A stretch of DNA of 64,000 nt from an uncultured Enterobacteriaceae bacterium (lineage in GTDB: Bacteria; Myxococcota_A; UBA9042), in contig CAYTLW010000007.1 in assembly GCA_964438735.1 (NCBI GenBank), positions 8,594-72,593 of the forward strand. Direction: 5' to 3'. The notes beneath the pieces are model-generated. The model was not told where the DNA came from and did no database searches. It saw nothing but the letters and a program-made list of their open reading frames with translations. The translations under genes were made by a program, and so were the position numbers. This document shows, piece after piece, positions 27,570-49,500 of the stretch. Positions within the stretch are counted from its first letter, which is position 1, and every line of letters starts with the position of its first letter.

Positions 27570-27926
27570 CTACCTCGGTGATCAGCCCATTAGTGGGTCT
27601 GGCGGCCGCACACAGCGGTGCCTTCGGCGCGCTAATGTGCAGCAAGCGTGCCAAGCCGAACCTGGGCTTGTCCTGGATCGTGTGGCAGGCCAACCCCTCG
27701 TGGCGACGACATTAATTCGCCAGCTTTTTGGCCATGGGAATCGAGCCGCAGGCCATCTGGCGGCGAGTGTTACCTCAACGACACATTGCCATGTGAAGAG
27801 CGTTACGCAGGCGTAACATACGAAGGGGCCGGCCCGGTTCACGCGCCCATTTCTCGAGTGCCCTCGCGGCGTCCAGCCATGGCGCCGGTCGGGGTTCGGA
27901 GCGAGGTCAAGCAATGGAAGGTGACC

Positions 27927-27943
27927 TTGGCGTATGTCTTGCA
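27927..27943 (+). promoter_or_regulatory. Candidate sigma54 (-24/-12) promoter upstream of the binding-protein / kinase / sigma54-regulator operon
   Basis: TTGGCGTATGTCTTGCA: GG and GC elements at the canonical 12-nt spacing (consensus TGGCAC-N5-TTGCA), 27 nt upstream of ATG 27970. The -24 hexamer is imperfect (TGGCGT). Confidence 0.3.
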
Positions 27944-31903: not shown

Positions 31904-33871
31904 CTACTGCGGCGGGTCGATCGGCCACTTCATGGGCGGCATCTCATAAGGCTTGCTTGCGTCCGCCGGAGGTGGCGGCGGCGGCGGGGCACCACCTGCA
32001 GGATACTTGGTGGTAAAGGTGCTCAGGTGCAGGTGGTGGTGATGGAAGGTGTACCAGCCCTTGCCCGTATTGGTGGTCTCGTAGGCCAGGTGTGAGGCGA
32101 ACTTCTTGTAGCTCGAGGCGCTGATCTTGCCAGCGCTGTAGAGCTTCTTCGCCTCGGCTTCCAGCAGGGGGCCGATCTTGCCGTCGACGCCGATCACCCG
32201 CACACGAGGGCTGTCGAAGAGCCGCCCGATGAACAGGGTCGTACGCGGGACGTCCAGGATGTTGGGCGCGCCGACGCAGTGATATTGGTCCTTGCCGCCC
32301 GCCACGTGCGGGCACACGGGCTTGAGATGGTTGTTCTTCTGGCCGACCTGATAGTAGGCGATGTCGATGTCCCGGCCCCAGTCGTGGGTCGTCTTCGGGT
32401 GGCGCAACTGACCGCTGCTGGTCTTGGGGGTGGTGCCGTCGGCCATGCTCATATCGCCCAGGCCCAGCGGGAAGCTGCCAGGCATCAGGCAGGCCACCGA
32501 AGCGGCGGCGTACTTGACCAGCATGGTGGTGTCGTGGCGCAGCCAGCTGAGCTTGTCGCCGTGGGTGACCTTGTAGCCGTAGCCGTTGGTGGGCTTGAAC
32601 AACTTCACCTTGCTGCAGGCGGAGTTGCCCAGGGTGCAGGCGTGGCCGGGGATCTTGCTCAGGCAGCTGGCCTGGCCGCTGCACGAGGCGGTGTTGAAGG
32701 TGCACTTGCTGCCGCACTTCAGGGTGCCGCCGGAGTAGCCCAGGCCGGTGCACTTCATGTTGTTCAGGTCGGCGCCGTCGCACTGCTCATCGCCAGTGGC
32801 CTTGCCGTCGCCACACTTGGCGCCGCCGCCACCGGGGCAGGCTTTGGCGAAGTCGGTGCAGCAGTCGTTGTACTGGGTGCACTGATCGTCGCACTGGCAC
32901 TTGGCGTTGCTGTCGTACTTGCCGCACTTGCCGACGCAGGACAGCCCGCCGCCGGAGCCGCTATCCGAAGAGCCCGTATCCGTCGGCCCGGCGTCGGGAG
33001 CGCCGCCGTCGGTGCCACCTGCGTCGCTGCCGCCACCGACGCAGAGTGCGTCGTAGTCGGAGCAGCAGTCCTTGTACTGCTTGCAGGCGTCGTCGCAGTT
33101 GCACGGCGCCTGGGCGCCCAGGTACTTGCCGCACGAACCCTTGCAGGTGCCCTTGGTCGGGTCGGCGCACTTGGTCCAGCCGCACGTCTGCATGGCGTCG
33201 ATCAGCTTGCCGGCTTTGTCCGCGGCGGCGCCGCTGATGCCCAGCTGCTTGGCGCAGTCGTCGATGCTCTTGCCGGTCTTGTTGCAGGAGATGAGCGCCG
33301 CGCAGGCGGAGTCGGCCTTGCAGGCGGCGGTCTCCTGCGGGCACTGGCTATCCCAGCATGGGTTGGTATTGAAGGCGCCGCCGCCCGCGTCGCCGGTGCC
33401 GGCATCGACGGTGCCGCCGGTGTCCTTGGGGCCCCCGGTATCGGTCGGTCCGCCGGCATCGACGGGACCGCCTGTGTCCTTGGGTCCGCCGGCGTCGACG
33501 GTGCCGCCGGTATCCTTGGCTCCGCCGACGTCGCTGGGGACCGTATCCACGCCGCCGCCTGAGTCGATCGTGCCGCGACCGCCGCTATCGACATTGCCGC
33601 GACCTGCATCGCCTGGCACGCCTCGGCCGTTGCCATCGCCAGCGACAGTTCCGCCATCCTGGAGCGTCACGCCACCGTCTCCGCCGGTGGCACCGGCGTC
33701 TACGCCTCCGGTCGGGCCGCCGTCCGGGGTCACGCCGTCCACGCTGCCGTCTGGGTTGTAGTAGCCCATGGGCACGCCGCCGCCGGCGGTCGTACCCAGG
33801 CATGCGGGCAGGGGCAGGATCGAGGCCAGGGCCAGCAGGCGCAACAGCGGGCGGGCGGGGGAGTGGGTCAC
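31904..33871 (-). CDS. Secreted (lipo)protein: Gly/Asp/Thr-rich linker, two somatomedin-B-like Cys modules, C-terminal MepA-like LAS-family zinc metallopeptidase domain
   Basis: GTG start at 33871 (GGAGGA 4 nt upstream) gives signal peptide [24 protein letters not shown]. Two modules [35 protein letters not shown] and [34 protein letters not shown] match the 8-Cys SMB pattern of vitronectin (CKGRCTEGFNVDKKCQCDELCSYYQSCCTDYTAEC). C-terminal [11 protein letters not shown]...FHHHHLHLS resembles MepA SHQTGLDVDI / HMHVRL zinc ligands. Poly-Pro tail. Confidence 0.6.
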
Positions 33872-34022
33872 GATGTCCTCCACTGGGGGTCCGGAGTCCG
33901 TCGGGGTGTGGGGCGCGCGGCATAGCACAGGGTTGGTTGCAACGAAAGGTGGATTTGTGCGCCGGCGGGCAGAGGCGGGGTCTATTCTACCCTCGCCGCA
34001 GCCTTTGAACGGGAGCCCGACC

Positions 34023-36323
34023 ATGACCCACCGACTTGTCGCCCTCGCAGCCCTCTGCGCGATGCTCGCCCTTGCCCCTGTAGCCGAAGCGGAGGTGCCC
34101 GGCACCCTGGCCGTCTACGGCACGATCGGCAGCGCGGGGGGCGGTGCGCCCAGCGGCAAGTACGTGGCGACGTTCTCGATCTACGGCGCGGCGAGCGGCG
34201 GCCAGGCGGCCTGGACCGAGGGCCTGACGCCAATCACGGTCAATGGGGGGCGATTCAGCACGATCCTGGGCGCCAAGAAGCCGCTGACGGCCACCTTGCT
34301 GGCGTCGTTGAAAGAGGCCTGGCTTGGCGTGGCCGTGGATCTGAACAAGGAGCAGCCGCGGGTGCGCCTGCACACGGTCGCCTACGCCCTGCAAGCCCAA
34401 TCGGCGGCCGGGCTGGCCTGTTCGGGTTGCGTGACGGCGCAACACCTGGCCCCGGGCGCGATCTCGGCCGACAAGGTCGGCTTCACCTTCGCGGGCGCCA
34501 AGACCAAGGGTGGCCCGGCCAACAGCGCCCTGGACCTGCAGTGCACCGGCTGTGTCAGCGTGGGCGAGTTGAAGATCGATGGCGACCTGGATCTCGGCGG
34601 CAACGCGCTCAAGGCCAAGACGGCTGTGGTCGGCAACCTCAGCGCCCAGTCGATCAGCGCATCGAGCTTTGCCGGCGACGGCAGCAAGCTGACCGGCATC
34701 AAGACGCCGTCGGGCGCCTGCAGCGCCAAGGGCCACGTGGTCAAGGGCATCAACCCGGACGGTTCGCTGCAATGTGTGCCAGGTGGTGGCGCCTCGGGCC
34801 TGCCGCCAGACGGCATCGATGAGATCTCCAACAACCTGATCTTCAATCAGTTCGTCGACTCGGCCAAGAGCAAGGCGCCGGTGCCGATCCCGGACAACAA
34901 CCCCATCGGCACCTCCGACGTCATCGACTTCCCCGACGTGGGCCTGGCCCAGAAGCTCACCGTGCACCTCGAGGTGGAGAACTCGAACCTCAGCGCCGTG
35001 GAGTTGACCCTCTACGACCCGGCCAACCAGAAGTACGTATTGCTGCCCAAGGGCGTGGGCAAGGGCACCAAGCTCGTGACCAGCTACCCGGCGCCCAGCA
35101 AGCCGGCCTCTGGCGATCTGACCGCCTGGATCGGCAAGAATCCCAAGGGCAAGTGGCGCCTGAAGGTCACGGACGAAGCCTTCAAGAACAACCAGTTCGA
35201 CGGCGCTATCAAGAGCTGGCGCATCGACATCCAGACCCTGTCCAGCAAGAAGATTCAGATCAAGGGCGACCTGATCGTCGACGGCAGCGTGCAGGGCTCC
35301 AAGGGCTTCCAGATCGTCGGCGACACCGGATTTGCCGGCGCTGTGGTCTTCAACGAGGAGGTCAAGTTCAAGAAGTCGATCATCATCGAGGGTGGCATCG
35401 CGTTCGGCGACATCAAGAAGCAGTCCTTCCAGATCTGCGACGACCCCGACCCCAACGGCCCATGCATCGCCGAGCTCTCCTCGGGTCGACCCTTCCTGGA
35501 GGCGGCGCTGCATTGCGCGGCGCAGAAGGGCGACATCTGCACCGACAGCCAGTGCTACGCCATGCGTAAGGTCTCCAATGGCTCGACCATCTACAACTTC
35601 ACCCTGCTGCCCAATTGGACCAACTCCTTCGCCGACAACGACAGCGGTCAGTGGAGCTCGGTCAACGGCGGCACGGGCGACAACCACAGCCACACCAGCA
35701 ACTACCTGGTGCCCTGCTGCCACAACATCACGCCGATCGTGCCCGGCGAGCAGAAGGTCGCCGGCATCCGCGTGCTGAAGATCAACAACGCCGACAACGC
35801 CACCTGGGATACGGCCGTCCAGGCGTGCCTCAAGCTCAAGGCCGATCTATGCGACAAGGGGCAGTACCGGGTGCTGCGCAACAAGGGCAAGATCAGCGCC
35901 CGCATGTGGGCCTCGGATCACTCCGATAACGACAACACCTCGGGCAGCTACAAGAAGGGCATCGGCGGCGTATCCGACAATCCCACGCCGGGTCAGAAGT
36001 ACGGCTACGCCTGCTGCGCCACCGACCGGCAGAAGCTGGACTGCCCCGCAGGAGCGCAGAATGTGAAGGGCGTCTGCGTGGCCAAGATCCACAACAGCAA
36101 CGTCAACTGGAACACCGCCAGCACCGCTTGCGCTGCCCTGGGCGCTCGACTCTGCTCCATCGCCCAGTCGGCGGTGTTGCGCAAAGAAGGCAAGATCAAG
36201 ACCAGCGCCAGCTGGACGGCTTCGTACAGCGACAACGACGGCAACCAGGCCCATATTGGTGTCGGAAACGCAGGCGACGACCACACCTACAACTCAGGCT
36301 ACGGCTACGCCTGCTGCTACTGA
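34023..36323 (+). CDS. Secreted protein with beta-rich N-terminal region and two C-terminal Cys-containing C-type-lectin-like domains each ending YGYACC
   Basis: Signal peptide [23 protein letters not shown]|E. C-terminal tandem ~120-aa domains (W[ND]TA..AC..LGA.LCS...VLR..GKI ... GYGYACC) that resemble the CTLD N-terminal consensus. Confidence 0.55.
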
Positions 36324-36357: not shown

Positions 36358-39300
36358 TCAATGACCACGCACGTACATCGTCGTATTGGACCGACACGCA
36401 CAGCCGCATAACGCCCCTGGCTTGTCCTGGCAGACCGTGCCCTGGGCAGCGTTGGGGTTCTTGCCGTAGTAGGTCAGCGTCTTGTACTGCCCGCCGCCGC
36501 CGTTGGAGCAGCCCACCCCCCAATGGGGCGTCTCGCCGGAGCCCTTGCAGGTGTAGCTGCCGCCCTTGGAGCCGTTGAAATACGCGTACGAGCCCGTGAG
36601 CTGCTTGCCGCTGGACCAGCTCCACTTCAACGTGGTCTTGGGGGAGCGATACCAGCGGTTGCCATAGAGATAGAGGTACTCCTTGGTGGTATTGCCATGC
36701 AGTGACGACGCCACGTTCGGGTAGAGCTTGGTCCAGCCACCGCCGGCGACGCTCATCAAGCAGACGGCGCTGAAGGCGTCGCCGATGCCGCCGCCGTTGG
36801 GGTCGATCCAGTAGCTGCCGTTGCCCTTGGAGCTGCCGCTGTCGAGGATGTGCTTGCAGCTGAGCGCCGGGTTGGACTTGGTGCCCACCGTCTTGGGCAC
36901 GCACTTGCCGCTCTGGCACCACTTGGCGGCGCCGCAGCCCTTGCCGTTGGCGACGTTCTTGGTCGTGCAGCCCTGGCCTTTGTCGCAGCCGTTGAGCGTG
37001 CAGGGGTTGCCGTCATCGCATTTCTTGGCCGAACCCGGCTTGCAGCTGCCGCCGTTGCAGGCGTCGTTAAGGGTGCAGACGCTGCCGTCGCTGCATGGGG
37101 CGGCGTTGTTGGCGTTGATGCAGCCCTTGGACGCATCGCAGAAGTCGGTCGTGCACAGCTTGTTGTCGTTGCAGTTCTTGGCCGAGCCCGGTTTGCAGCT
37201 GCCACCGGTGCAGATGTCGTTGGTGGTGCAGGCGTTGCCGTCGCTGCAGGGCTTGGTATTGGCCTTGTGGGTACAGCCCGTAGCCGGCGCGCAGGCATCG
37301 TCGGTGCACAGCTTGCCGTCATCGCAATTCGGCGCGGCGCCCGGGGCGCATTTGCCGCCGGTACAGGTGTCCTTGAGGGTGCACTTGCTGTTGTCAGAGC
37401 AGGGCTTGGTATTGGCCGTGAACGTGCAGCCCTTGGCCTTGTCGCAGCCGTCGTCGGTGCAGAGTTCGCCGTCGCTGCAGGACTTCTTCTTGCCGGGGAT
37501 GCAGAAGCCGCCCAGGCAGCTGTCGGTCAGGGTGCAGACGTCGCCATCGCTGCACTTGGCTGAATTGGGAGCGTGCTGGCAGCCCTTGGTCTTGTCGCAG
37601 GAGTCGTCGGTGCAGACCTTGCCGTCATCGCAGACCAGCGGCGCGCCGGCCGCGCACGACTTGTCCTTGCAGGCGTCGGGTTTGGTGCAGGCGTTGCCGT
37701 CGTCGCATGGCGCCGTGTTGGCCACGTGCAGGCAGCCGTTCTTCCAGTGGCAGCCGTCGGTGGTGCAGTTGTTCTTGTCGTCGCAGACCTTGGGCCCGCC
37801 GGGCGTGCAAGCGCCGGCCTTGCAGATGTCCTTGTCGGAGCAGGTGTTGCCGTCGTTGCAGCCGGCGCTGTTGTGGGTGAAGACGCAGCCCTTGGCCTTG
37901 TCGCATGCGTCATCGGTGCACACGTTGCCGTCGGCGCAGGTCACCGGATTGCCGGGCGCGCAGGTGCCTGCTTTGCACCCATCGTTGGCGGTGCAGGCGT
38001 TGCCGTCGTCGCAGGGCAGGGCGTTGGCGGGGTGGGCGCAGCCGTTGAGGTGGTGGCAGGTGTCGTTGGTGCAAAGTTTGCCGTCGTCGCAGCTCTTCGG
38101 CTTGCCGGGCGCGCATTTGCCGGCCAGGCAGCCGTCGGACTCGGTGCAGACGCTGCCATCGCTGCACGGCGCGCCGGGTTTGGCGTGCACATGGCTGCAG
38201 CCGGTCTTGGCTTCGCATTCATCTACGGTGCAGACATTGCCGTCGTTGCAGACCAGCGCCTTGCCGGGCTGACATTTGCCAGCCGCGCAGCCGTCACCCA
38301 CGGTGCAGGCGCTGCCGTCGTCGCAGGCCGAGCTGTTGGGTGTGAAGGTGCAACCCTTGGCCGGATCGCATCCGTCGGTCGTGCACACCTGCCCATCGCT
38401 GCAGGTCACGGGTTTGGCGGCGCACTTGCCGCTGGCGCAGACGTCCTCCTTGGTGCAGGCGTTGCCGTCGTCGCAGGCGCCCGTGTTGTGCACATGGGTA
38501 CAGGCCGTCTTGGCGTCGCAGCCGTCGGTTGTACACGGGTTGCCGTCATCGCAGGACTGCTTGCCCGGCCCCTTGCATTCGGTAGCGGTGCAAGCGTCGG
38601 CCAGGGTGCAGGCGTCGCCGTCGTCGCACGCGACGCTGTTGGCCAGGTGGGTGCAGCCGGTCTTCTTGTCGCAGCTGTCGTCGGTGCAGAGGTTGTCGTC
38701 GTTGCAATCGAGGGCCGGTCCGCCCGTGCAGACACCTTTGTTGCAGATGTCCTTGGTGGTGCAGGCGTCGCCATCATCGCACGCCGGCCCGGTCTGCTCG
38801 TTGTGCACGCAGCCCTTGATCGCGTCACAGCCGTCGATCGTGCAGGTGTTGTTGTCGTCGCAGACCACCTTCGTGCCGATGCATTTGCCTTCGGTACACG
38901 CGTCGTCGGAGGTGCAGGCGTTGTTGTCATCGCAAGCGCCCGCCTGGGGCAGATGATTGCACTTGCCGGCGTTGCAGCTGTCCGCCGTGCAGACCATGTT
39001 GTCGTCGCAGACCCCCGGGTCGGCCTCGTCGGTGTTGCCGTCGCAGTCATCGTCCTGGGTGTTGCAGGTCTCGCTCACCGCAGCCGGCGCGTCGCAGGCG
39101 CCCAGGCCCTTGGCGTTGCAGGCGCGCTTGCCGGTACAGGTGCCGGCGCCATTGGTTGTGGAACAGCCGGTGACGAGTCCCAGCTCCTTGGCCCGGGCGC
39201 TGCACGGACAGGTCAGGTCGGCGCGTTGACATTGTTTGGCCTTGGCGCCACCCACGCTGACCACGTCGACGCACTGCCAGCCCTCCGGGCAGGTCACATC

Positions 39301-39846
39301 CGCGCCACAGCCGCCGCCACAGAAGGCGCCCAGGTTCTCGCCCTGCTCGCTGTAGGGCACGCAGAGGGACTTGCCGCCGCCGAGCGCGGCGCTGCAATCC
39401 GAGTCGCTCTGGCAGGGATCGCAGATGCGCGGAAAGCGCGGCACGCAGATGGACGTGGCATCGCCGGCCCCGGTGTCGACCAGCTTGCAGACGTAGTCCT
39501 CGGCGCAGTCGGTCACGCAGGTTTTGGCGCAGACCTTGCCGTCGAAGGTGTCGATGCAATAGCCCGAGTCGCACTCATCATTGCCCTTGCAGGGCTGGGC
39601 GGGCTGCTCGTCGGCGTCCGGCAGCGCGGTGCCCTGGTCGACCGGTTCGCCTGCGTCCTCATCGGCCGCATCGTTGATGACACTGTCGAAGTCCATGGTG
39701 ATGTCCGGACCCGCCGGTCCGGAGACCACGGAGTCATCGGCGGGATCCCCACAACCGGCCATGGTGCCGACGGTCATGCACAGCAGGGTGCAGAACAGAA
39801 GCATCGGGCGGGCGCCAACGGCCCGCCGGCGCGGAGTCTCGAGCAT
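36358..39846 (-). CDS. Cys-rich repeat lipoprotein (~21 Myxococcus-type cysteine-rich repeats) with C-terminal fibrinogen-related (FReD/COLFI-like) domain
   Basis: Signal peptide plus lipobox MLETPRRRAVGARPMLLFCTLLCMTVGTMAGC. Alternative ATG at 39867. G-rich Shine-Dalgarno before 39846. Repeats of CxDGNxCTxDxCxxxxGCxHxxN. C-terminus ...SCKHILDSGSSKGNGSYWIDPNGGGIGDAFSAVCLMSVAGGGWTKLY... has the hallmarks of the fibrinogen / fibrillar-collagen C-terminal fold. Confidence 0.75.
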   Translation of the reverse strand: MLETPRRRAVGARPMLLFCTLLCMTVGTMAGCGDPADDSVVSGPAGPDITMDFDSVINDAADEDAGEPVDQGTALPDADEQPAQPCKGNDECDSGYCIDTFDGKVCAKTCVTDCAEDYVCKLVDTGAGDATSICVPRFPRICDPCQSDSDCSAALGGGKSLCVPYSEQGENLGAFCGGGCGADVTCPEGWQCVDVVSVGGAKAKQCQRADLTCPCSARAKELGLVTGCSTTNGAGTCTGKRACNAKGLGACDAPAAVSETCNTQDDDCDGNTDEADPGVCDDNMVCTADSCNAGKCNHLPQAGACDDNNACTSDDACTEGKCIGTKVVCDDNNTCTIDGCDAIKGCVHNEQTGPACDDGDACTTKDICNKGVCTGGPALDCNDDNLCTDDSCDKKTGCTHLANSVACDDGDACTLADACTATECKGPGKQSCDDGNPCTTDGCDAKTACTHVHNTGACDDGNACTKEDVCASGKCAAKPVTCSDGQVCTTDGCDPAKGCTFTPNSSACDDGSACTVGDGCAAGKCQPGKALVCNDGNVCTVDECEAKTGCSHVHAKPGAPCSDGSVCTESDGCLAGKCAPGKPKSCDDGKLCTNDTCHHLNGCAHPANALPCDDGNACTANDGCKAGTCAPGNPVTCADGNVCTDDACDKAKGCVFTHNSAGCNDGNTCSDKDICKAGACTPGGPKVCDDKNNCTTDGCHWKNGCLHVANTAPCDDGNACTKPDACKDKSCAAGAPLVCDDGKVCTDDSCDKTKGCQHAPNSAKCSDGDVCTLTDSCLGGFCIPGKKKSCSDGELCTDDGCDKAKGCTFTANTKPCSDNSKCTLKDTCTGGKCAPGAAPNCDDGKLCTDDACAPATGCTHKANTKPCSDGNACTTNDICTGGSCKPGSAKNCNDNKLCTTDFCDASKGCINANNAAPCSDGSVCTLNDACNGGSCKPGSAKKCDDGNPCTLNGCDKGQGCTTKNVANGKGCGAAKWCQSGKCVPKTVGTKSNPALSCKHILDSGSSKGNGSYWIDPNGGGIGDAFSAVCLMSVAGGGWTKLYPNVASSLHGNTTKEYLYLYGNRWYRSPKTTLKWSWSSGKQLTGSYAYFNGSKGGSYTCKGSGETPHWGVGCSNGGGGQYKTLTYYGKNPNAAQGTVCQDKPGALCGCACRSNTTMYVRGH

Positions 39847-39896
39847 GATCCCCCCCTCGGTCGTCATAACAGGGTAGCGGTCTTCTGGGGGTCGGC

Positions 39897-42659
39897 TCAA
39901 GGCGCCTTGGGCACATCTTTGGCGCAACGGACTCCCAGAGCCGGATCGGTGCTCTTCTTGGGGCTGCTCTGGCGGTTGCCGGCGCGCACCTCCGCCGCCG
40001 TGCTGACCAGGCTGCCACCACGAACCACGCGGCCATCCTTGGCGGGCGCGTGGGGATCCTTCTTGGGCGACTTGCTGTACCAGTCCGCCTGGTAGCCGTC
40101 GCTGACCCACTCGCTGACGTTGCCGCCCATGTCGCGCACGCCGTAGGGACTGATGTCCTTGGCCATGGTGCCGACGCTGCGCGTGGTGCCCAGGTCGCAG
40201 CCGCCCTTGTCGACGCCGAGCATGACCGTGAAGCTGCAGTTGGCCGCCGGCTTGGCCCAGGGCCAGGTCGGGGTCAGCTTGGCGCAGTCTTTGCCCCAGA
40301 TCTCGCAGCCGCCGCGGGCGGCCTTCTCCCACTCGGCTTCGGTCAGCAGGCGCTTGCCAAAGTGCTGGCAGACGGCCACCGCCGCGTCGTGGTCGATGCA
40401 GTTCATGGGGTGCTGAGCCTTGGTCTTGTCGCCCCAGTTGCACTTGGGCAGCGGGTCCTTGGGTTTGGCGCAGTTGCCGGCGTCCACGCATTGACCGTAT
40501 TGGTCGACGGTGATCTCGAAGCGATCGATGAAGAAGGCGCTCAACTGGACCTCGTGCTGGGGTTTCTCGTCGGGTTTGCAGGCGCCATCCAGGGCGGCGT
40601 TGCAGCCCATCTGTGTCGGCCCGTCGGGCACGTAGATCATGGCCGGCGCCAGGGCCAGGCACTGGCCGTCATGGCAGATCTTGGCCGTCTCGGCCCCCGC
40701 CGTGCAGACGCTGCCGTTGACCACCGAGCCGTGGCTGCACTTGCCCTTGGGACCACAGATGTCCACCGTGCACGGGTTCTTGTCATCGCAGGCGCTGTCA
40801 ACCGCGACCAGGCCGCATTTGCCAGTGCTCGGATTGCAGGTCGTCTTCTTGCAGCCCTGGGAGGCCTCGGTGCACGCGACGGCGGACGCGGGTTTGGTCT
40901 TGCACACCGGCGGGCTCGCGGCGGTGTCGCAGTAGGGCGTGCCGTTGCAGGCGTTGCCGTCGTCGATGCAGTCCGCGTCGGCTTTGCAGGCACAGAGATC
41001 GGTGCCGCCTTTGCAGCTGCCGGCCTTGCAGATGTCACCGACGGTGCAGGGCTTGCCGTCATCGCACTTGCTCAGGTCGGCGGACTTCTTCATGGCGCAC
41101 TTGCCGGTCTTCTTGTCGCAGGTGTTCTTCTTGCACGGGCCGTCATCCTTGCCGGTGCAGACGACAACGGTGGTCGGGTTGACCAGGCAGGTGGGCGGAT
41201 TCTGCAGCTTGTCGCAGTAGAGCGTGCCGTTGCACGCGTTGCCATCCTCCTTGCTCTTGCAGTCGTCGTTGGTCTCGCAGACACAGGTATTGGTGCCCGT
41301 CAGGCAGGAGCCGAAGCCGTCGCAGGTATCGTCCACGGTGCACGGGTTGTCGTCTGCGTTGCACTGGGAGAACTTGATGGCGAATTCCGGCTTGCAGACG
41401 CCCAGCGCCGGCGCGCAGGCCATGGTCATGCAGTCGGTGGAGCCGGCCTTGGAGCAGTGAATGATCGTGCCCGGGTGGACCTTGCAGGCGCCCGCCTTCT
41501 TGTCGCAGTAGAGCGCGCCATTGCATAGATCGCCGTCGTCGAATTGCTGGCAGTCCGCGTCCTGCTTGCAGCCGCAGAGATCGGTGCCCGATTTGCAGCT
41601 GCCGTCCTCGCAGACATCGCCCTTGGTGCACACCTGGCCGTCGTCGCAGGGGGTCAGGTCGGGCTTGGCTTCGGCGGTGCATTTGCCGGACTTCTTGTCG
41701 CACAGCACGGGGGCGCAAGGATCGGCGCCGGCGCCCGGGCAGGTGACCACCGTCGCCGGGTTGATCACGCACTTCGGCTTGCCGGCGCTCAGGTCGCAGT
41801 AGAGCGTGCCGTTGCAGGTGTCGCCATCCTCTTTGCCGGCGCAGTCCGCGTCCTTGACGCAGACGCAGGTATTGGCGCCACCGACGCAACTGCCCGCCTT
41901 GCAGTGATCGCTCGCAGTGCAACCATTGCCGTCATCACAGAGCTTGGGCGGTTGGGTGTCGGCGACCGCCTTGACGAGGCATTCGCCGGTGTCCGGCTTG
42001 CACTTGACCAGCTCGCAGGCGCCGGCGCTCAGGTGGCTGCAATCGACCACCGACGCCGGATTCGTCTTGCAGTTGTAGGGCACCTCGCTGGTGTCGCAAT
42101 AGGGCTGGCCGTTGCAGACGTTCTTGTCGTCCTTGCAGTCGGCGCTGACGTGGCAGGCGCAGATGTCCGACTTCGGGTCGCCGATGCATGTGCCCTTATC
42201 GTCGCAGTTGGCGCTCTTGGTGCAGGGGTCGCCATCATCGCACTTCGACTTGGCCGGCAGCGCTTTGGCCTTGCACTGGCCCGCGGTGCAGCTCCAGACC
42301 TGGCAGCTGTCGGGCGACTCGCCGCAGTCCTTGGCCACCTTGCAGCCGCCGGTGTCGACCGGTGTCGGCGTGTCCGCTTTGACGGCGTCGCCCTGCTCAC
42401 CGTCCACCTTGTCTGCTGTATCGGCGATGTCTGGCTGCGCGCCCGTGTCGCCGATTCCATCCGACATGCTGTCGGGGGGCGTGTCGGCGTCAGCGTCGTC
42501 GCCAGTGCCATCAACCACCTTGCCGCCGTCGTTGCCCGCGAAACCGCTCTCGTCGGGGACCATGTCCCAGCACGCCGGCAGCGCCAGCGTCGCCAGCAGC
42601 AGCCCGGCCCATCGGATCCCTGCACTGTGCGCGCATCGCGGTGTCTTCATGGCGTTCAT
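39897..42659 (-). CDS. Cys-rich repeat lipoprotein with C-terminal FGE-sulfatase (SUMF1/formylglycine-generating-enzyme-like) domain
   Basis: Signal peptide plus lipobox (MNAMKTPRCAHSAGIRWAGLLLATLALPAC). ~8 larger modules (CxCxxDADCAxxEDGDxCNGTLYCD...C.xNPxTVVxC) alternating with short CDDGxxCTxxDxC repeats. C-terminal domain with FGE motifs (MIYVPDGPTQMGC..., GKRLLTEAEWEKAARGG, GGNVSEWVSDGYQADWY, VVRGGS). Start ATG overlaps the stop of the upstream gene (TGATG). Confidence 0.75.
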   Translation of the reverse strand: MNAMKTPRCAHSAGIRWAGLLLATLALPACWDMVPDESGFAGNDGGKVVDGTGDDADADTPPDSMSDGIGDTGAQPDIADTADKVDGEQGDAVKADTPTPVDTGGCKVAKDCGESPDSCQVWSCTAGQCKAKALPAKSKCDDGDPCTKSANCDDKGTCIGDPKSDICACHVSADCKDDKNVCNGQPYCDTSEVPYNCKTNPASVVDCSHLSAGACELVKCKPDTGECLVKAVADTQPPKLCDDGNGCTASDHCKAGSCVGGANTCVCVKDADCAGKEDGDTCNGTLYCDLSAGKPKCVINPATVVTCPGAGADPCAPVLCDKKSGKCTAEAKPDLTPCDDGQVCTKGDVCEDGSCKSGTDLCGCKQDADCQQFDDGDLCNGALYCDKKAGACKVHPGTIIHCSKAGSTDCMTMACAPALGVCKPEFAIKFSQCNADDNPCTVDDTCDGFGSCLTGTNTCVCETNDDCKSKEDGNACNGTLYCDKLQNPPTCLVNPTTVVVCTGKDDGPCKKNTCDKKTGKCAMKKSADLSKCDDGKPCTVGDICKAGSCKGGTDLCACKADADCIDDGNACNGTPYCDTAASPPVCKTKPASAVACTEASQGCKKTTCNPSTGKCGLVAVDSACDDKNPCTVDICGPKGKCSHGSVVNGSVCTAGAETAKICHDGQCLALAPAMIYVPDGPTQMGCNAALDGACKPDEKPQHEVQLSAFFIDRFEITVDQYGQCVDAGNCAKPKDPLPKCNWGDKTKAQHPMNCIDHDAAVAVCQHFGKRLLTEAEWEKAARGGCEIWGKDCAKLTPTWPWAKPAANCSFTVMLGVDKGGCDLGTTRSVGTMAKDISPYGVRDMGGNVSEWVSDGYQADWYSKSPKKDPHAPAKDGRVVRGGSLVSTAAEVRAGNRQSSPKKSTDPALGVRCAKDVPKAP

Positions 42660-43519
42660 CAGAACCGCACCGCCCAGACCAGCCCGCGGCCTGTCGGCAC
42701 CACGGCGCTCGAGGTCGCCGGCTGTCCGCTGAGCCACCAGATGCCTGCGCCGGCCATGACGGCGCCGACGGTCATCAGGCTGACGCCGATGGCCATGCGC
42801 GTATTGGCCGACTCCTGGCGCGCCAGGGCGTCGTCGCGATCGATGCCGACCACCTTGCCTGCGCTGTCCTTGTTGTTGAGTTGCTCTTCGAGGGCATCCG
42901 CCTGATCGAGCGCGTCGAAGGTCAGCCAGCCGCCGGCAGCTGCCGCGACCACACCGGCCCCGACGCCGCCCCAGGCCAACAGGCGCGTGGTGCCTGCGGC
43001 CGCGCGCGCTCTGGCCGCCGCGTCCGCCTTCGCCTTTCGCTCCGCCGCCAGTTTCGCCGCTGCGGCTGCCGCCGCCTTCTGCGCCGCTTTTTGTTCCGCG
43101 GCGCGTTTGGCCGCCTGTTGCGCCGCATCGGCTGCCTTCTTGCGCTCCTCTTTGGCCTGCTGCCAGCGCTTGCTGGCCTTGGCGCGCAGTGCGTGGCTGG
43201 TCGGGGCGCGTCGCAGGAAGATCTCCCAGGCCTTCTCAGCCTCTTGCCAACGCTTGGCCTTGGACTCGCAGAGGGCGGCGCTGTAGAGGTACTCGACCGT
43301 GGCCGGATCGATGGTCGCCGCCTGCCGGTAGAGCTGGCTGCACAGCCGCCACTGCTTCGCCTTGGCCTTCGACGCGGCGACATAGGAGATGGCCGCCGCC
43401 TCCTCGGCCTTGCTGACCGCCTGGCCCCAGGCGGTCGAGCACAGCAAGATGGCGCCCAGCGCACACAGGCCGGCCAGGTACCGCAAGTGGGGTCCGGCTT
43501 TCGCTGACGGGGCGTGCAT
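42659..43519 (-). CDS. Membrane protein: signal peptide, TPR-like helices, Ala/Lys/Glu-rich coiled-coil, two C-terminal TM segments
   Basis: Real start ATG 43519 (MHAPSAKAGPHLRYLAGLCALGAILLCSTAWGQA), lying inside a longer GC-artefact ORF. ~70-aa AKAE-rich segment. TM helices LLAWGGVGAGVVAAAAGGWL and IGVSLMTVGAVMAGAGIWWL. Translationally coupled to the downstream FGE-domain gene. Confidence 0.5.
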   Translation of the reverse strand: MHAPSAKAGPHLRYLAGLCALGAILLCSTAWGQAVSKAEEAAAISYVAASKAKAKQWRLCSQLYRQAATIDPATVEYLYSAALCESKAKRWQEAEKAWEIFLRRAPTSHALRAKASKRWQQAKEERKKAADAAQQAAKRAAEQKAAQKAAAAAAAKLAAERKAKADAAARARAAAGTTRLLAWGGVGAGVVAAAAGGWLTFDALDQADALEEQLNNKDSAGKVVGIDRDDALARQESANTRMAIGVSLMTVGAVMAGAGIWWLSGQPATSSAVVPTGRGLVWAVRF

Positions 43520-43583: not shown

Positions 43584-46500
43584 CTACTTGCACACCCCGG
43601 CGCTGCAGGTCTTGCCGCCGCCGCAGGGGCTGTTGTCGGCCAGGTTGCCATGCTTGCAACCGGCAGCTGCGGTGCAGGTGTCCAGGGTACAGGGATTGGC
43701 GTCGTCGCAGCCCACCGAGGGCTTGTCTGCGCAGGCACCGGAGGCCGTACACTTGGTCGTGCCCCAGGCGTCGAGGCGCTGCAGCCAGCCAGCGGCCTTG
43801 TTGCCGCTGTCAGGCCGCTTGCCCACCAGGGCCAGGCCTTCCTTGAAGAGCGCGACACCGTGGGCCACGTCTGTTCCCGAGACACCAATAGTTGCGGCGC
43901 TGCGCACGTTGCCCTGCGCGTCGATGTGGGCGAGCAAGGCGTCCATCCCACCGCCCGGGCCGGGGTTCTGGTGGCCCACCGCGAACACGCCCAGGGGCGC
44001 TGCGGGAGCCAGGGCCAGCAGCAGGTTGTCGTTCGCGCCGGTGACCTTCGCCTGCCAGAGCAGGCTGCCGGAACCATTGATGCGCCAGACGCTGCCCACC
44101 TTCTTGTTGCCGCCGGCCACGTCGTGGAAGTAGCCCGCCGCGTACACGCCGTTGTCGCCATCGGAGAGGGCCGCCAGGCAGCCGTCATTCTGCGCGCCCC
44201 CGAAGGTCTTCAGCCATGACTGAGTGCCGCTGCTGGTCACGTTGAAGACCAGGCAATCGGTGCCTCCGGCACCCTGCGTCGTATCGCCGACGACGATCCC
44301 GTTGGTGCCGTGGGTCACCACGCCGCGCGCGGCCTGGTCACCGGTGCCACCGAACGTCTTGTCGAAATCCGAATTGCCGATGTCGGAGATCCGCAGCACG
44401 TACGCGTCGTAGCCGCCGCCGCCCTTGCTGTTGGTGCGACCGACCAGCAGGTGTTTGTCGGGGGCACGCCAGGCGGCCGCGAAGGCCTCCTCATCCTTGT
44501 CCCCCTCCTTGCTCTTGTCGAAGGCGAGCGTGCCATCGGCGTTGACCTTCGCCCACCACATGGCCTTGCCTTTGGCGGCGTCCAGGTTCTTGCTGCCGAA
44601 GACCAGGTGGCCAGCCTTCGCGGCGGCGATGACACCCCAGGCCACGTCGTCCTTGGCGCCGCCCCAGGTCTTCTCCTGGGTGATGGTGCCTGCGGAGTTG
44701 ACGCGCAGCAGCCAGGCATCCGCGCCGCCGGCTCCCTTGGACGTGGTGCTGCCCACCGCCACCAGCCCGCCGCCGTCGCGGGTGACGCCATGCAGCACAT
44801 CATCGCCAGAGACGCCGTAGAGTTTGGACAGCAGCTTGTCCTGCTTGCTCGCTTGGCAGACGCCGTTGGCGAAGCAGGTGCCAGGCAACGAACAGGCGTC
44901 GCCATCGGCGCAGTCGCCGGTCGCGTCGGCGTGGCTGCACACGCCCTTGTCGCAACCATCCAGCAGGCAATCCTTGCCGTCGTCGCAATCGGACGCCGAC
45001 TTGTCGGCACAACCCGATGACACGTCGCACGTGATATGGCCCCAGGCGTCCAGGCGGGCGACATGGATCTCCTCGTTGCTGTTGCCCGGCTGCGACTTGC
45101 TGGTGGTGACCACCGCGGGCGCGCCGTCGTGGGCCAGGCTGAGATCCCAGCCCCAATCCTCGCTGGCGCCGCCGACGTACTGCGTCCAGCGCGTGGTGCC
45201 GTGCAGATCGGTCGACACCACGTAGCCGTCCTCCTTGCCCAGATCGCCGTCCTTGTACGTGCCGACGGCGAAGACATTGTCGCCGACCCCCAACCGGACA
45301 CCGCGCAGGTTGTCATCGCCGTTGCCGCCGACGGTCTTGCTCCAGCGAACGCCGCCGGCCGCGTCGACCCGCAGCAGCCAGCCATCGATGCCGCCAGCGC
45401 CGAACGACTTGGTCGCCCCTGCCAGGGCGAAGCCGCCGTCGGGGAAGCGCGCCAGGCCGTAGCCCCACTCCTGGTCGCTGCCGCCGTAGTAGCGTCGCCA
45501 GCGTTCGCGGCCATCCCGATCGGTGCGCAGCAGGATCATGTCGCGGCTCTTGGAGATGCCGGCCTCGCTCTCGCCGATGATGGCGAAGCCGTCCGGCAGG
45601 GCGACCACATCATGGGCCCGGTCGACCTTGCCGCTGTAGCCCCAGGTCCGGCTGAAGAGCTTGTTGCCGCTGTTGCTGAAGGCGACCGTCAGGCCGTCCG
45701 TGCTGCCGGTGGCGATGTAGCCGACCGCGAAGAGGGCGCCGTCATCTCGCAACGCCACCGCGTGACCCCGGCTGGTGATCTCGCCGGTGACATGACCCTT
45801 GCTCCAGATCTTGCCGCCGCTGGCGTTGACTCGCATGACCATCAGCACCGGATCCTCGTCACCCAGGCTCTCGCTGAAGCCGGTGATGGCGTAGCCGCCA
45901 TCGCTCAACTGGACCAGCCCGAAGCCGTGCTCCTGGTCCTCGCCATTGGACAGGTCCACCGCCCACTTCTGCGTGCCGGCGCGATCGAGGTGGATCAGTC
46001 GCGCATTGCCATCCTCGCCGGAGCCGCCGCCGACCAGGGTGAATCCGTCGGCCGTCGTGACGATGTCGCGTCCCCAGCGCCGACTGGAGTGCGACGAGAA
46101 GGTCGAGAAGAGGCGCGGCTTGTTCAGGGTGGCGCACTTGCCCGAGCTGCAGACGCCGCCTGCCGAGCACACATTGCCGTCCTCGCACGCGCCGGCCAGG
46201 GCCGTGTATTTGCAGCCGCCGTTGGCCTTGTCGCAGCTGTCTGCGGTGCAGCTGTTGCCATCGCTGCAGATCTTCGGCTTGCCGGATGCGCAGGCGCCGG
46301 CGCTGCAGGCGTCTCCCACCGTACAGGCGTCGCCGTCGTCGCATGAGGCCGTGTTGTTGGCGAACTGGCATCCCTTGACCACGTCGCAGCTGTCGGTCGT
46401 GCAAGCGTTCTTGTCATCGCAGGTCTTCGGTGAGTTGCCCACGCACTTGCCGCCGTTGCAGGCGTCGATCTGGGTGCACACGTTGCCGTCATCACACGCT

Positions 46501-49500
46501 TTGGTGTGGTTGGTGAAGACGCAGCCCTTGGCCTTGTCGCAGACGTCGTCGGTGCAGGTATTGCCGTCGTCGCAGGTCACCTTCTTGCCGCCGCAGGTGC
46601 CCCCGCTGCACGCATCCGAGGCGGTGCAGGCGTCGCCATCGTCGCAGGTGGCGGTGTTGTTGACCTGCTTGCAGCCGGTGGCCTTGTCGCAGCTGTCGGT
46701 GGTGCAGACATTGCCGTCGTTGCAATCGGGTGCCTTGCCGCCCACACAGTTGCCGCCGCTGCAGGTATCGGCTGTGGTGCACGCGTCGGCGTCGTCGCAG
46801 GCGGCCGTGTTGTTGACGTGCACGCAGCCTTTGGCCTTGTCACAGCTGTCGGTGGTGCAGACCTTGCCGTCGTTACAGCTGGGCGCGCCACTGCCGACGC
46901 AGGTGCCGCCCTTGCAGCCGTCGGTGGTGGTGCACCCGTCACCGTCGTCGCAGGCCGCGGTGTTGTTGACGTGCTGGCAGCCCTTGGCCGGATCGCAGGA
47001 GTCGGTGGTGCAGACCTTGCCATCGCCGCAGTTCGGCGCCGGGCCGCCCTTGCAGGCGCCGCCGGAGCAGGCGTCGTTGAGCGTGCACTTGCTGCCGTCA
47101 TCACAACTGGCGCTGTTGTTGCTGTACACGCAGCCGGCCGCCTTGCTGCACGAGTCCGTCGTGCAGCCGTTGCCGTCGTCGCAGTTGGGTGGCTTGCTGC
47201 CGGAGCACGACCCGCCGGCGCAGACATCCACGGTGGTGCACTTGCTGCCGTCGTCGCAGGGCGCGGTGTTGTTGGCGGTCACGCAGCCCTTGGCTTTGTC
47301 GCAACTATCGGTGGTGCAGACCTTGCCGTCATCACAGACCGGTGCCTGACCGCCCACGCACTTGCCAACGCTGCAGGTGTCCTTGGTCGTACAGGCGTTG
47401 CCGTCGTTGCAGGGCGAGACATTCACGGTGTTGACGCAACCGATGGCCGCCTTGCAGCTGTCGGTCGTACACGGGTTGCCATCGCTGCAATCAGCTGCCG
47501 AACCAGGATCGCAGGCGCCGCCCTTGCAGAGGTCGCCGACCGTGCACTTGCTGCCGTCTGAACAGGGGTTGCCCGTGTTCTTCGCGCTCAACTTGCACGC
47601 CCCCGTCTTGGCGATGCACACATTGACCACGCAGGTCGTGTTTTGGGACGAATCGCAGGTGACGATGGTCTTGGGATCGATCTTGCAGGCATAGGGCGCC
47701 TTGGACGTGTCGCAGATCAGGGTGCCGTTGCAGGGGTTGCCGTCTTCCTTGGCGGCGCAATCGCTGTTCTTGGTGCAGGCGCACTGGTTGGCGCCCGACT
47801 GACAGCTGCCGCCACTGCATTTGTCGCCCGACGTGCACACGTTGTTGTCGTCGCAGGTGGCCGAATTGGCCGCGTGGGTGCAGCCCTTGGCTTTGTCGCA
47901 ACCATCGTTGGTGCAGGGGTTGCCGTCGTCGCAGGAGGGGGCTCCGCTGCCGACGCAGCCGCCCGATTTGCAGGTATCGGTGAGCGTGCACTTGCTGCCG
48001 TCATCGCACGGCTTGGTATTGGCCCCGTGAGTGCAGCCCTTGACGGCGTCGCAGGCGTCGTCGGTACAGGCGTTGTTGTCGTCGCAGTTGATGGCCACGC
48101 CCTTGCAGACGCCGCCGCCGCAGGCGTCGGACTTGGTGCAGACCGTGCCGTCGTCGCACGGTTTGCCGTTGTGGCCGTGGCTGCAGGCGCCGGTCTTGAC
48201 CCCGCAGCTGTCGTCCGTGCAGGGGTTGTTGTCGTCGCATGACTTGGCCTTGCCGGCCACGCATTTGCTGGCGGCGCAGCTGTCGCCGATGGTGCACTTG
48301 TTGCCATCGTTGCAGGGCTGTTTGTTGGCCACGTGTGAACAGCCGCTCTTGATATCGCAGCCATCGTTGGTGCAGGGGTTTCCATCGTCGCACTTGACGG
48401 CCTCGCCGGGCACGCAACTACCCGCCGCGCACGCGTCCCCCGAGGTGCAGGTGTTGCCATCATCGCAGGGCGCGGTGGTCGCGACATTGCTGCAACCGAC
48501 CAGCGGCTTGCATTGATCGGTGGTGCAGGCGTTCTTGTCGTTACAGCCGAGCGCCGCGCCTGGCGCGCATTTGCCGCCCTTGCAGCCGTCGTTGGTCGTG
48601 CACTTGTCGCCGTCGTCGCATGCGCCACCGCTGGCGGTGAAGGTGCAGCCCTTGGCTTTGTCGCAGCTGTCCGCGGTGCAGACCTGGCCGTCATTGCACA
48701 ACAAGGACTTCCCAGGTTTGCAGAGGCCCAGATAACAGGTGTCGGCGGCGGTGCACACGCTGCCGTCGGCATCGCATGATTTGCCCTCGTTGCGCGGCAG
48801 CAGCTTGCACTTGCCGGTCTTGGCGTCGCAGGTATTGACCCGGCAGGTGCTGTTCTTGGCCGCCGAGCAGGTCACGATGGTCTTGAGGTCGACCACGCAG
48901 ACGAAGGGCGCCTTGGCTTTGTCGCAGCGCAAGGTGCCGTTGCAGACGTTGCCATCCTCCTTGGCCTTGCAGTCGGCGTCTTTTTCGCATCCACAGATGT
49001 TTCCGCCGGCCTGGCAGGCGCCCGCCTTGCAGGTGTCGCCCGCCGTGCAGGGGTTGCCATCATCGCACTTGGCGGTCGATGGGCTGTGCACGCAGCCCTT
49101 GAGCTTGTCGCAGGCGTCGGTGGTGCACAGCTTGCCGTCATCGCAGGAAGTGGGTTTGCCGGGCACGCATTTGCCGCCGGAGCAGGTATCGCCCACGGTG
49201 CAGGCGCTGCCGTCGCTGCAGGAGGCGCTGGCAGGGCTCTGCAGGCAGCCCTTGTCGGTGTCGCAGGTGTGCTTGGTGCACGGGTTGCCATCCTCGCATT
49301 TGACCGATGTGCCGACGCAGCCGCCCGCCTTGCAGGCATCGGACGATGTACAGGCGTTGCCGTCGTCGCAGCTGCCCGCCTGCGCCTTCGTGGAGCACTT
49401 ACCGCTGTTCTTGAGGCAGGTGTCGATCGTGCACGGGTTGCCGTCGTCGCAGACTTTGGCCTTGCCCGCCACACACTTGCCGCCGGTGCAGCCGTCCCCG

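Follow-up and report, generated by a model that had tools for sequence, protein, structure and literature searches.

A predicted Myxococcota lipoprotein that joins tandem somatomedin-B modules to a divergent MepA-like peptidase domain

Introduction

What does a bacterial protein do that carries two somatomedin-B (SMB) modules, known chiefly from animal proteins such as vitronectin, in front of a domain resembling a murein endopeptidase? The question is raised by a minus-strand gene in a stretch of 64,000 nucleotides (positions 8,594 to 72,593 of contig CAYTLW010000007.1, assembly GCA_964438735.1; GTDB lineage Bacteria; Myxococcota_A; UBA9042), which is called the window here and is numbered from its first letter. 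An original prediction, made from the letters of the window, described the product as two SMB modules fused to a MepA-like domain. Here we report that the 655-amino-acid (aa) protein does contain two SMB modules and a divergent MepA-like domain of the LAS group. The reading that we favor, at a probability of roughly 0.55, is that it is a lipid-anchored, disulfide-rich zinc peptidoglycan DD-endopeptidase that sits on a flexible stalk, acts outside the wall of its own producer and uses its SMB modules as a surface module.

Results

The minus-strand open reading frame (ORF) ending at 31904 is real, and its coding sequence is 31904..33871. The longest reading frame extends to 34105; the sequence GGAGGA, 4 nucleotides (nt) upstream of the GTG at 33871, is the ribosome-binding site. 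An identical 655-aa product with the same neighbors is encoded on a public 69-kb contig (ENA ERZ23498677 SUTE22-1_SAMN10231912_METAG-scaffold_826); the window is thus metagenomic DNA, and the original prediction had the bounds of the coding sequence right. From the N terminus to the C terminus, the protein consists of a signal peptide with a putative lipobox, a Gly/Asp/Thr linker, a helical domain with eight cysteines, two SMB modules, a six-cysteine module, a C-terminal domain of 218 aa and a tail rich in proline. The domain identities (two SMB modules and a MepA-like domain) are assigned with high confidence.

The C-terminal domain escapes conventional annotation. Pfam and NCBIfam searches with the full protein and with residues 402 to 655 found no peptidase family, even at permissive thresholds. 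Pfam Peptidase_M74 (PF03411), the search by which the MepA assignment was to be checked, did not detect the protein even at E <10. PHROGs gave no match, and a single-sequence phmmer search of the domain against the Protein Data Bank (PDB) returned noise and His-tag matches alone. A HMMER family profile placed MepA at E 0.16 among PDB sequences, behind His-tag artifacts, a result that is not decisive alone.

Structure and profile comparisons gave a consistent assignment. The AlphaFold model of the domain had a mean predicted local distance difference test score (pLDDT) of 91 and a predicted template-modeling (TM) score of 0.91. When the model was compared with the PDB by Foldseek, the significant matches were five chains of Escherichia coli MepA alone (1tzp and 1u10; E 1.4e-5 to 4.3e-5, probability 1.00, TM score 0.49 to 0.54, 204 to 227 columns, 15 to 17% identity), and the next match had an E value of 0.5. 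On these matches, the modeled domain belongs to the MepA fold. An alignment of relatives of the C-terminal domain (A1) was then compared by hhalign with an alignment of 15 enterobacterial MepA sequences (A2); the two were related with 90% probability (P 1.7e-6) over 75 columns that include the GDMSM and HxxGxDxDI motifs. Further, 3 of 25 A1 members matched Peptidase_M74 below its cut-off of 25 bits: P0004 (22.8 bits, E 7.7e-5), which is 51% identical, P0003 (16.4 bits) and P0021 (14.4 bits). The MepA-like assignment of the original prediction was thus borne out by the fold match, by the profile-profile comparison, by the subthreshold M74 scores of three relatives and by collinear motifs. Since the domain itself fails the curated M74 threshold, we describe it as a divergent sister branch of M74 that lacks annotation, not as a member of the family in its present definition.

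The catalytic residues of MepA were located in the domain by alignment. We take the zinc ligands of MepA to be His113, Asp120 and His211 and its catalytic residue to be His209; these ligand identities, and the definition of the LAS group, are reportedly due to Marcyjaniak et al. in 2004. All four residues are invariant in A2. A second, more global hhalign comparison, built on a family alignment of 160 sequences and run at a lower alignment threshold, covered 175 columns (P 1.4e-4). In numbering that starts at the first residue of the domain, it paired H95 with MepA H113 and D102 with D120, aligned the strand RVRVIGVDG with VTRIFVN, and matched a 10-residue segment to PW.QHRAHMHVRL of MepA so that H212 falls on MepA H209 and H214 on H211. 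The HMMER profile alignment to 1tzp gave the same registers. Both methods therefore make H496, D503, H613 and H615 of the protein collinear with MepA H113, D120, H209 and H211. The two motifs occupy residues 496 to 506 (an 11-residue stretch) and 610 to 617 (HHHHLHLS).

Conservation within the family follows the same residues. Invariant in A1 (domain numbering) are D72, H90, P91, H95, G98, D102, Y105, C119, C131, R157, G160, D162, G204, W205, H211, H212, H214 and S216. Among 160 representatives, D72, H90 and H95 were each conserved in 99%, D102 in 98%, H209 in 97%, H214 in 96% and H212 in 91%. The original prediction had read the putative zinc site as H-x4-D followed by H-x-H. Both motifs are present and the H-x-H stands, but the first spacing is H-x6-D, with D503 rather than D501 as the aligned ligand; D501 corresponds to MepA D118, likewise invariant, and both aspartates are conserved. 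Nonequivalence of these His and Asp residues to the LAS zinc ligands, which would have told against the prediction, was not what the alignments showed. H-x(3,6)-D and H-x-H are the metal-site motifs of LAS enzymes (PMC3927764), and the domain has H496-x6-D503 followed by H613-x-H615 on the shared fold. MepA is a zinc-dependent D-Ala-mDAP (meso-diaminopimelic acid) endopeptidase (PMC6403190). Together, the conserved catalytic residues and the unique fold match indicate that the domain probably has peptidoglycan endopeptidase activity. In a fold search of BFVD, the unnamed 634-aa viral protein A0A516LBS3 matched the model (E 6e-4, TMq 0.57), a match that was uninformative, as did a Siphoviridae protein (E 0.038); both are possibly phage lysins that share the fold.

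The two SMB modules are unambiguous. Pfam Somatomedin_B (PF01033) matched the protein in two stretches (60.5 bits, E 2e-16), above its cut-off of 23.1. A phmmer search of PDB sequences returned ENDOU, ENPP2 (many entries), vitronectin, ENPP3 and ENPP1 with E values from 8e-7 to 8e-3. In the best of these, human ENDOU (E 8.4e-7), both SMB modules were aligned across the linker; the modules align cysteine for cysteine with those of ENDOU and ENPP2, and vitronectin matches query residues 75 to 109. Both modules have all eight cysteines and the CxCDxxC...DCCxD(Y/F) core of the canonical pattern. Module 1 has the spacing C-x3-C-x9-C-x-C-x3-C-x5-CC-x6-C, and module 2 differs from it in having x8 in the second gap. 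The claim of two perfect modules with a spacing identical to that of vitronectin was therefore exact for the first module and not for the second. The SMB identity itself is far beyond chance: sequence, profile and fold matches agree, and the modules are bona fide members of PF01033.

Residues 166 to 399, a segment that includes the helical domain and both SMB modules (together, the cassette), were modeled with AlphaFold from an alignment of 15 relatives. The model was very confident for its residues 1 to 115 (the helical domain and SMB1) and for SMB2, with pLDDT values above 90 for the helical domain, about 95 for SMB1 and 87 to 92 for SMB2. Foldseek matched it to the tandem SMB modules of autotaxin (ENPP2) and ENPP1 (E 3.5e-4, probability 1.00). 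The helical domain, with the motif FNxNPCWDxxCxxExxACKA...CGWxxCxDP, had no match in Pfam and no fold match in the PDB by Foldseek, and it appears to be an undescribed domain family.

The same cassette occurs in a family of surface proteins. Sixteen relatives were found at E ≤0.01, all annotated with PF01033. The 15 that were aligned are 43 to 54% identical to the cassette, are 305 to 395 aa long and all end in a MYXO-CTERM-type tag (a cysteine, a hydrophobic helix and RRR); 14 of them have the helical domain. MYXO-CTERM tags are known for cell-surface display. The protein studied here does not have the tag, and its C terminus is Pro-rich and reads ...MKWPIDPPQ. Because this small MYXO-CTERM family has the same cassette, SMB modules are rare in Myxococcota but not confined to the protein studied here, and the original description of SMB as almost exclusively eukaryotic needs this limit. 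The 655-aa protein looks like a recombination of the surface-protein cassette with a peptidase module. Papers on bacterial SMB modules were not found when the literature was searched for SMB in bacteria or myxobacteria. Another SMB-like eight-cysteine module was seen in a Myxococcales metagenome-assembled genome (MAG), at the end of an ORF (L064, 3609-4095, plus strand) that resembles thioredoxin or redoxin on visual inspection; an M74-like gene follows about 2 kb downstream.

The N terminus reads as that of a lipoprotein. By eye, the 23 residues from the GTG start up to a cysteine form a typical signal peptide, and the last 17 of them with that cysteine fit a lipobox, with an unusual proline at position -2. 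The signal peptides of the close relatives L002, L003 and L004 end in ...AGC, ...PAC and ...LGC, respectively, and a regular expression found a lipobox-like N terminus in 73 of 180 family sequences, many of which are fragments. The linker that follows contains imperfect tandem repeats of 18, 36 and 54 nt (33398-33533, minus strand; Tandem Repeats Finder) that code for DTGGxxDAGGP units; the repeat linker could be a length-variable stalk.

Between SMB2 and the catalytic domain lies the six-cysteine module, which has the same position in L001 to L004, P0001, P0004, P0005 and P0174. It had no match in Pfam, and NCBIfam gave 0 families at E ≤1; we take it to resemble the Myxococcus cysteine-rich repeat (TIGR02232), with no match to that model obtained in NCBIfam or Pfam. 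The poly-proline tract noted at the C terminus is present as the Pro-rich tail, which ends in a W-P-(I/L) motif: MKWPID here, and ...KQWPLP, ...KIWPID and ...WRWPIK in L001, P0174 and L003. This motif could be a sorting or autoinhibitory peptide.

The peptidase domain defines a large family. A word-indexed search of 5.8 billion proteins with the C-terminal domain found 37 relatives, none with a Pfam domain. A HMMER search of 1.84 billion cluster representatives with the A1 profile found 677 proteins at E ≤1e-3, 254 of them at E ≤1e-30. The domain is almost always C-terminal, with medians of 13 residues after it and 140 before it, in host proteins of 166 to 4098 aa. The modules in front of it vary and include a MopE-type metal-binding motif, Big_7, Dicty_CTDC, LTD, PPC and Cys-rich domains without a family. 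A search for M74 in Myxococcus found no paper on this peptidase branch.

When one genome per species was scanned, the domain was encoded at 114 loci, of which the best 80 were kept. Most of these 80 are in MAGs labeled Myxococcota, one of its subgroups (Polyangia, Sandaracinaceae, Nannocystaceae, Haliangium and Kofleriaceae among them) or the older name Deltaproteobacteria; one each is in MAGs labeled Bradymonadia and Bdellovibrionales, and the few other labels are probably unreliable. The best match was 76% identical, and the source species is thus absent from the one-genome-per-species set. Several MAGs have at least two dispersed copies (L001 and L003, L002 and L019, L038 and L050, L037 and L064), and M74-like genes are tandemly duplicated at four loci (L033, L057, L059 and L061), suggesting paralogue diversification.

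Two SMB modules precede the peptidase in three proteins only: the 655-aa protein, L001 and P0174. In all three, the six-cysteine module (CGDG..ECDG) is present and the Pro-rich tail has W-P-(I/L) at its end. L001 is 72% identical to the 655-aa protein over 313 aa; its genomic context differs, and its sequence is cut off by a contig end. Outside the gene, this closest relative has no synteny with the window. Because three proteins share it, the SMB-SMB-peptidase fusion is a conserved architecture of a small clade and not an assembly accident.

The features of the gene and its surroundings are collected in Table 1.

Table 1. Features of the gene for the 655-aa protein and of its surroundings, in window coordinates
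Feature	Position	Strand	Basis or remark
Whole coding sequence, predicted modular lipoprotein	31904..33871	-	655 codons and stop; ORF, ribosome-binding site, identical public gene call
Signal peptide with putative lipobox L-P-A-C, residues 1-24; Cys24 predicted lipidation site	33800..33871	-	Read by eye
Low-complexity Gly/Asp/Thr/Val/Pro linker (141 aa), residues 25-165	33377..33799	-	Composition G50 D20 T17
Helical 8-Cys domain, residues 166-235, FNxNPCWDxxC...CGWxxC	33167..33376	-	AlphaFold 2 (AF2) pLDDT >90; kept in MYXO-CTERM proteins
Somatomedin-B module 1, residues 243-277	33041..33145	-	Pfam PF01033 best stretch 242-278; ENPP2 SMB1 alignment; AF2; Foldseek
Somatomedin-B module 2, residues 312-345, after a 34-aa Gly/Ser/Asp linker	32837..32938	-	Second Pfam stretch; vitronectin and ENDOU alignments; AF2
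6-Cys module CGDG..EQCDG...C, residues 352-397, directly before the catalytic domain	32681..32818	-	Same position in relatives
MepA-like (M74-like, LAS) metallopeptidase domain, residues 402-619	32015..32668	-	AF2, Foldseek, hhalign, motif alignment, conservation
Predicted Zn ligand H496	32384-32386	-	Alignment to MepA H113
Predicted Zn ligand D503	32363-32365	-	Alignment to MepA D120
Predicted catalytic His H613	32033-32035	-	Alignment to MepA H209
Predicted Zn ligand H615	32027-32029	-	Alignment to MepA H211
Further invariant residues of the MepA-like domain: D473, H491, H610, C520, C532			
Pro-rich C-terminal tail, residues 620-655, ending in conserved W-P-I motif	31907..32014	-	Sequence
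Divergent secreted-protein gene, proprotein-convertase P-domain (E 5.8e-8)	~34022-36323	+	Three C-terminal repeats ending ...YGYACC
Sigma-54 promoter-like site	27638-27653	-	The two sites have 1 and 2 mismatches; window-wide counts at chance
Sigma-54 promoter-like site	27928-27943	+	As above
Giant/modular neighbor genes	36358-40662, 39897-42737, 43584-52028	-	Dicty_CTDC matches

The gene stands on its own. Convergent with its 3′ end is a gene pair for a histidine kinase and an NtrC-type sigma-54 activator; on the 5′ side, the divergently transcribed neighbor codes for a secreted protein that has a proprotein-convertase P-domain. The 150-bp intergenic region (33872-34021) had no sigma-54 promoter-like site, and counts of such sites over the window were at chance; on these grounds, we rejected the idea that the gene is tied to the NtrC-type regulator convergent with it. 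A consensus scan for sigma-70 promoters and terminators found none. Clustering of the ORFs within 6 kb of the gene at 81 loci found no recurrent neighbor beyond shadow ORFs. An effector-immunity pair was therefore rejected, and, because no neighbor recurs across these loci, nothing points to an immunity partner or to a secretion system dedicated to the protein.

Elsewhere in the window, the two sigma-54-like sites of Table 1 adjoin a cluster of genes for a phosphonate-binding protein, a histidine kinase and an NtrC-type protein. Neighboring proteins of 1434 and 2814 aa are packed with Dicty_CTDC "slime-mold" Cys-rich repeats (E 4e-45 and 8e-43), and another neighbor combines an FGE-sulfatase domain with Dicty_CTDC; these add to the eukaryote-associated modules in the window.

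Discussion

In the mechanism that we propose, the protein would be exported by Sec and lipidated at Cys24, and the 141-aa flexible stalk would keep its folded modules (the helical eight-cysteine domain, the two SMB knots, the six-cysteine module and the catalytic domain) away from the membrane. The catalytic domain would bind zinc through H496, D503 and H615, with H613 as the catalytic residue, and, like MepA, would cut D-Ala-meso-DAP peptide cross-links of peptidoglycan. The cassette of the helical domain and two SMB modules would most likely have a binding or presenting role on the cell surface, and the target would be the walls of prey or competitors, or released wall material, outside the sacculus of the producer. 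Metal dependence, substrate, localization and the role of the SMB modules are thus what we infer from the comparisons above, as are the peptidoglycan cleavage, predatory role and SMB targeting of the original prediction. Extracellular action is the weaker step; it is suggested by the association of the cassette with MYXO-CTERM proteins, by module shuffling, by paralogue expansion and by the taxonomic distribution of the family.

Several observations weigh against this reading. No Pfam or NCBIfam peptidase model scored above threshold on the protein, identity to MepA is only about 16%, and the proline at position -2 of the lipobox is unusual. An outer membrane lipoprotein on a long linker could equally reach the wall of its own producer, and a surface enzyme cannot, without other factors, reach the wall of an intact Gram-negative prey cell. 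No conserved neighbor such as an immunity gene was found at the 81 loci, and nothing marks the protein as an antibacterial effector.

The main rival is a housekeeping autolysin that is anchored in the outer membrane, faces the periplasm and cuts the cross-links of its own wall for growth, division or spore morphogenesis, with the Cys-rich modules as spacers or regulators. Such a role is possible but less probable than extracellular action. It fits the homology to MepA, a periplasmic enzyme of the self wall, and the E. coli lipoprotein endopeptidase MepS has a self-wall role like that of MepA. The predicted lipoprotein signal with its 141-aa flexible linker and the lack of an immunity-like neighbor at the 81 loci fit it as well. 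However, the N-terminal cassette is otherwise found on MYXO-CTERM proteins, and extracellular-type module shuffling, host proteins of up to 4098 aa and paralogue expansion are atypical of housekeeping endopeptidases.

The divergence from MepA would also suit a LAS-fold domain with a substrate other than peptidoglycan, such as another D-amino-acid or short-peptide substrate, or a domain given over mainly to zinc-dependent binding as in the Hedgehog N-domain. The low identity, the failure of the Pfam M74 model and an inter-motif region that differs from that of MepA and has its own invariant cysteine pair (C520/C532) are compatible with such a domain, and the LAS group includes nonpeptidoglycan proteins (PMC4102407). 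We nevertheless regard this as improbable: the full catalytic set is kept (H-x6-D, H-x-H and the extra His) beyond the metal ligands, the sole significant structural neighbor is a peptidoglycan enzyme, and three relatives score on M74. That the His and Asp motifs are a fortuitous likeness and the domain is no LAS peptidase, or that the fusion is an artifact of assembly or annotation, is very unlikely. The absence of a Pfam or NCBIfam match on the C-terminal region and the E value of only 0.16 for MepA, amid His-tag artifacts, in the PDB profile search would be expected on that account, but the fold, profile-profile and family-level evidence agree, two further sequences have the same architecture, and a public contig gives the identical gene call. 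Chance resemblance to MepA is essentially excluded. An anchored zinc endopeptidase acting outside the wall of its producer therefore remains the reading that we prefer.

If this prediction is true, the M74/MepA family, with its single member, gains a large branch of about 677 sequence clusters that carries no annotation and comes almost entirely from Myxococcota. The branch would be a candidate for a Pfam family of its own and a source of enzymes that degrade cell walls; known predators are among the lineages concerned. The protein would also exemplify a rare bacterial use of an animal-type module, which occurs on MYXO-CTERM surface proteins as well as joined to an enzyme, and would make it practicable to study which ligands SMB has beyond animals. 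Small disulfide-rich modules would, further, be shuffled in front of one catalytic domain in these bacteria. The architecture is new but is built from known kinds of parts, and current understanding is not overturned. More speculatively, and with little weight from us, the tandem SMB cassette might be a ligand-binding "address" at the Myxococcota surface and, joined to a MepA-like peptidase, might define a new class of targeted bacteriolytic enzymes, in which the tandem-SMB-enzyme layout of the ENPP and ENDOU type arose in bacteria independently or by ancient exchange.

Comparison with known systems places each part of the protein. E. coli MepA (MEROPS M74, PF03411; 1TZP, 1U10) shares the overall fold over about 225 columns and, in the same order, the motifs GDM(S/G)M, H-x6-D (HxxGxDxDI), a (V/R)(T/V)R(I/V)(F/I) strand and W..H..HxH; both proteins have a Pro-rich C-terminal extension. 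The differences are the identity of about 16%, the inter-motif insert with the cysteine pair C520/C532 invariant in the new family, and the setting: MepA is a single-domain soluble periplasmic protein, whereas here the domain is the last module of a predicted lipoprotein with SMB and other Cys-rich modules. Lysostaphin (M23), VanX and VanY (M15) and the Hedgehog N-domain follow the same H-x(3,6)-D ... H-x-H metal-site logic, yet none of them was among the 50 best PDB fold matches listed, where MepA was the only one of these enzymes.

The MYXO-CTERM proteins (P0038 to P0053) share with the 655-aa protein the order helical domain, SMB1, SMB2 and an acidic low-complexity leader. In them, a CxxCxGKxCGDDxCGG module and the MYXO-CTERM tag follow, without an enzyme domain; in contrast, the 655-aa protein has a putative N-terminal lipobox, the six-cysteine module and the peptidase. 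The SMB modules of ENPP1, ENPP2 (autotaxin), ENPP3, ENDOU and vitronectin have the same eight-cysteine pattern and the CxCDxxC...DCCxD(Y/F) signature, and in the ENPPs and ENDOU, as here, tandem SMB modules stand N-terminal to a catalytic domain. Compared with these animal tandems, the modules of the 655-aa protein are in a bacterial context and are separated by a low-complexity linker of 34 aa. The animal partner enzymes are phosphodiesterases or an endoribonuclease, whereas the partner in the 655-aa protein is a cell-wall-type peptidase.

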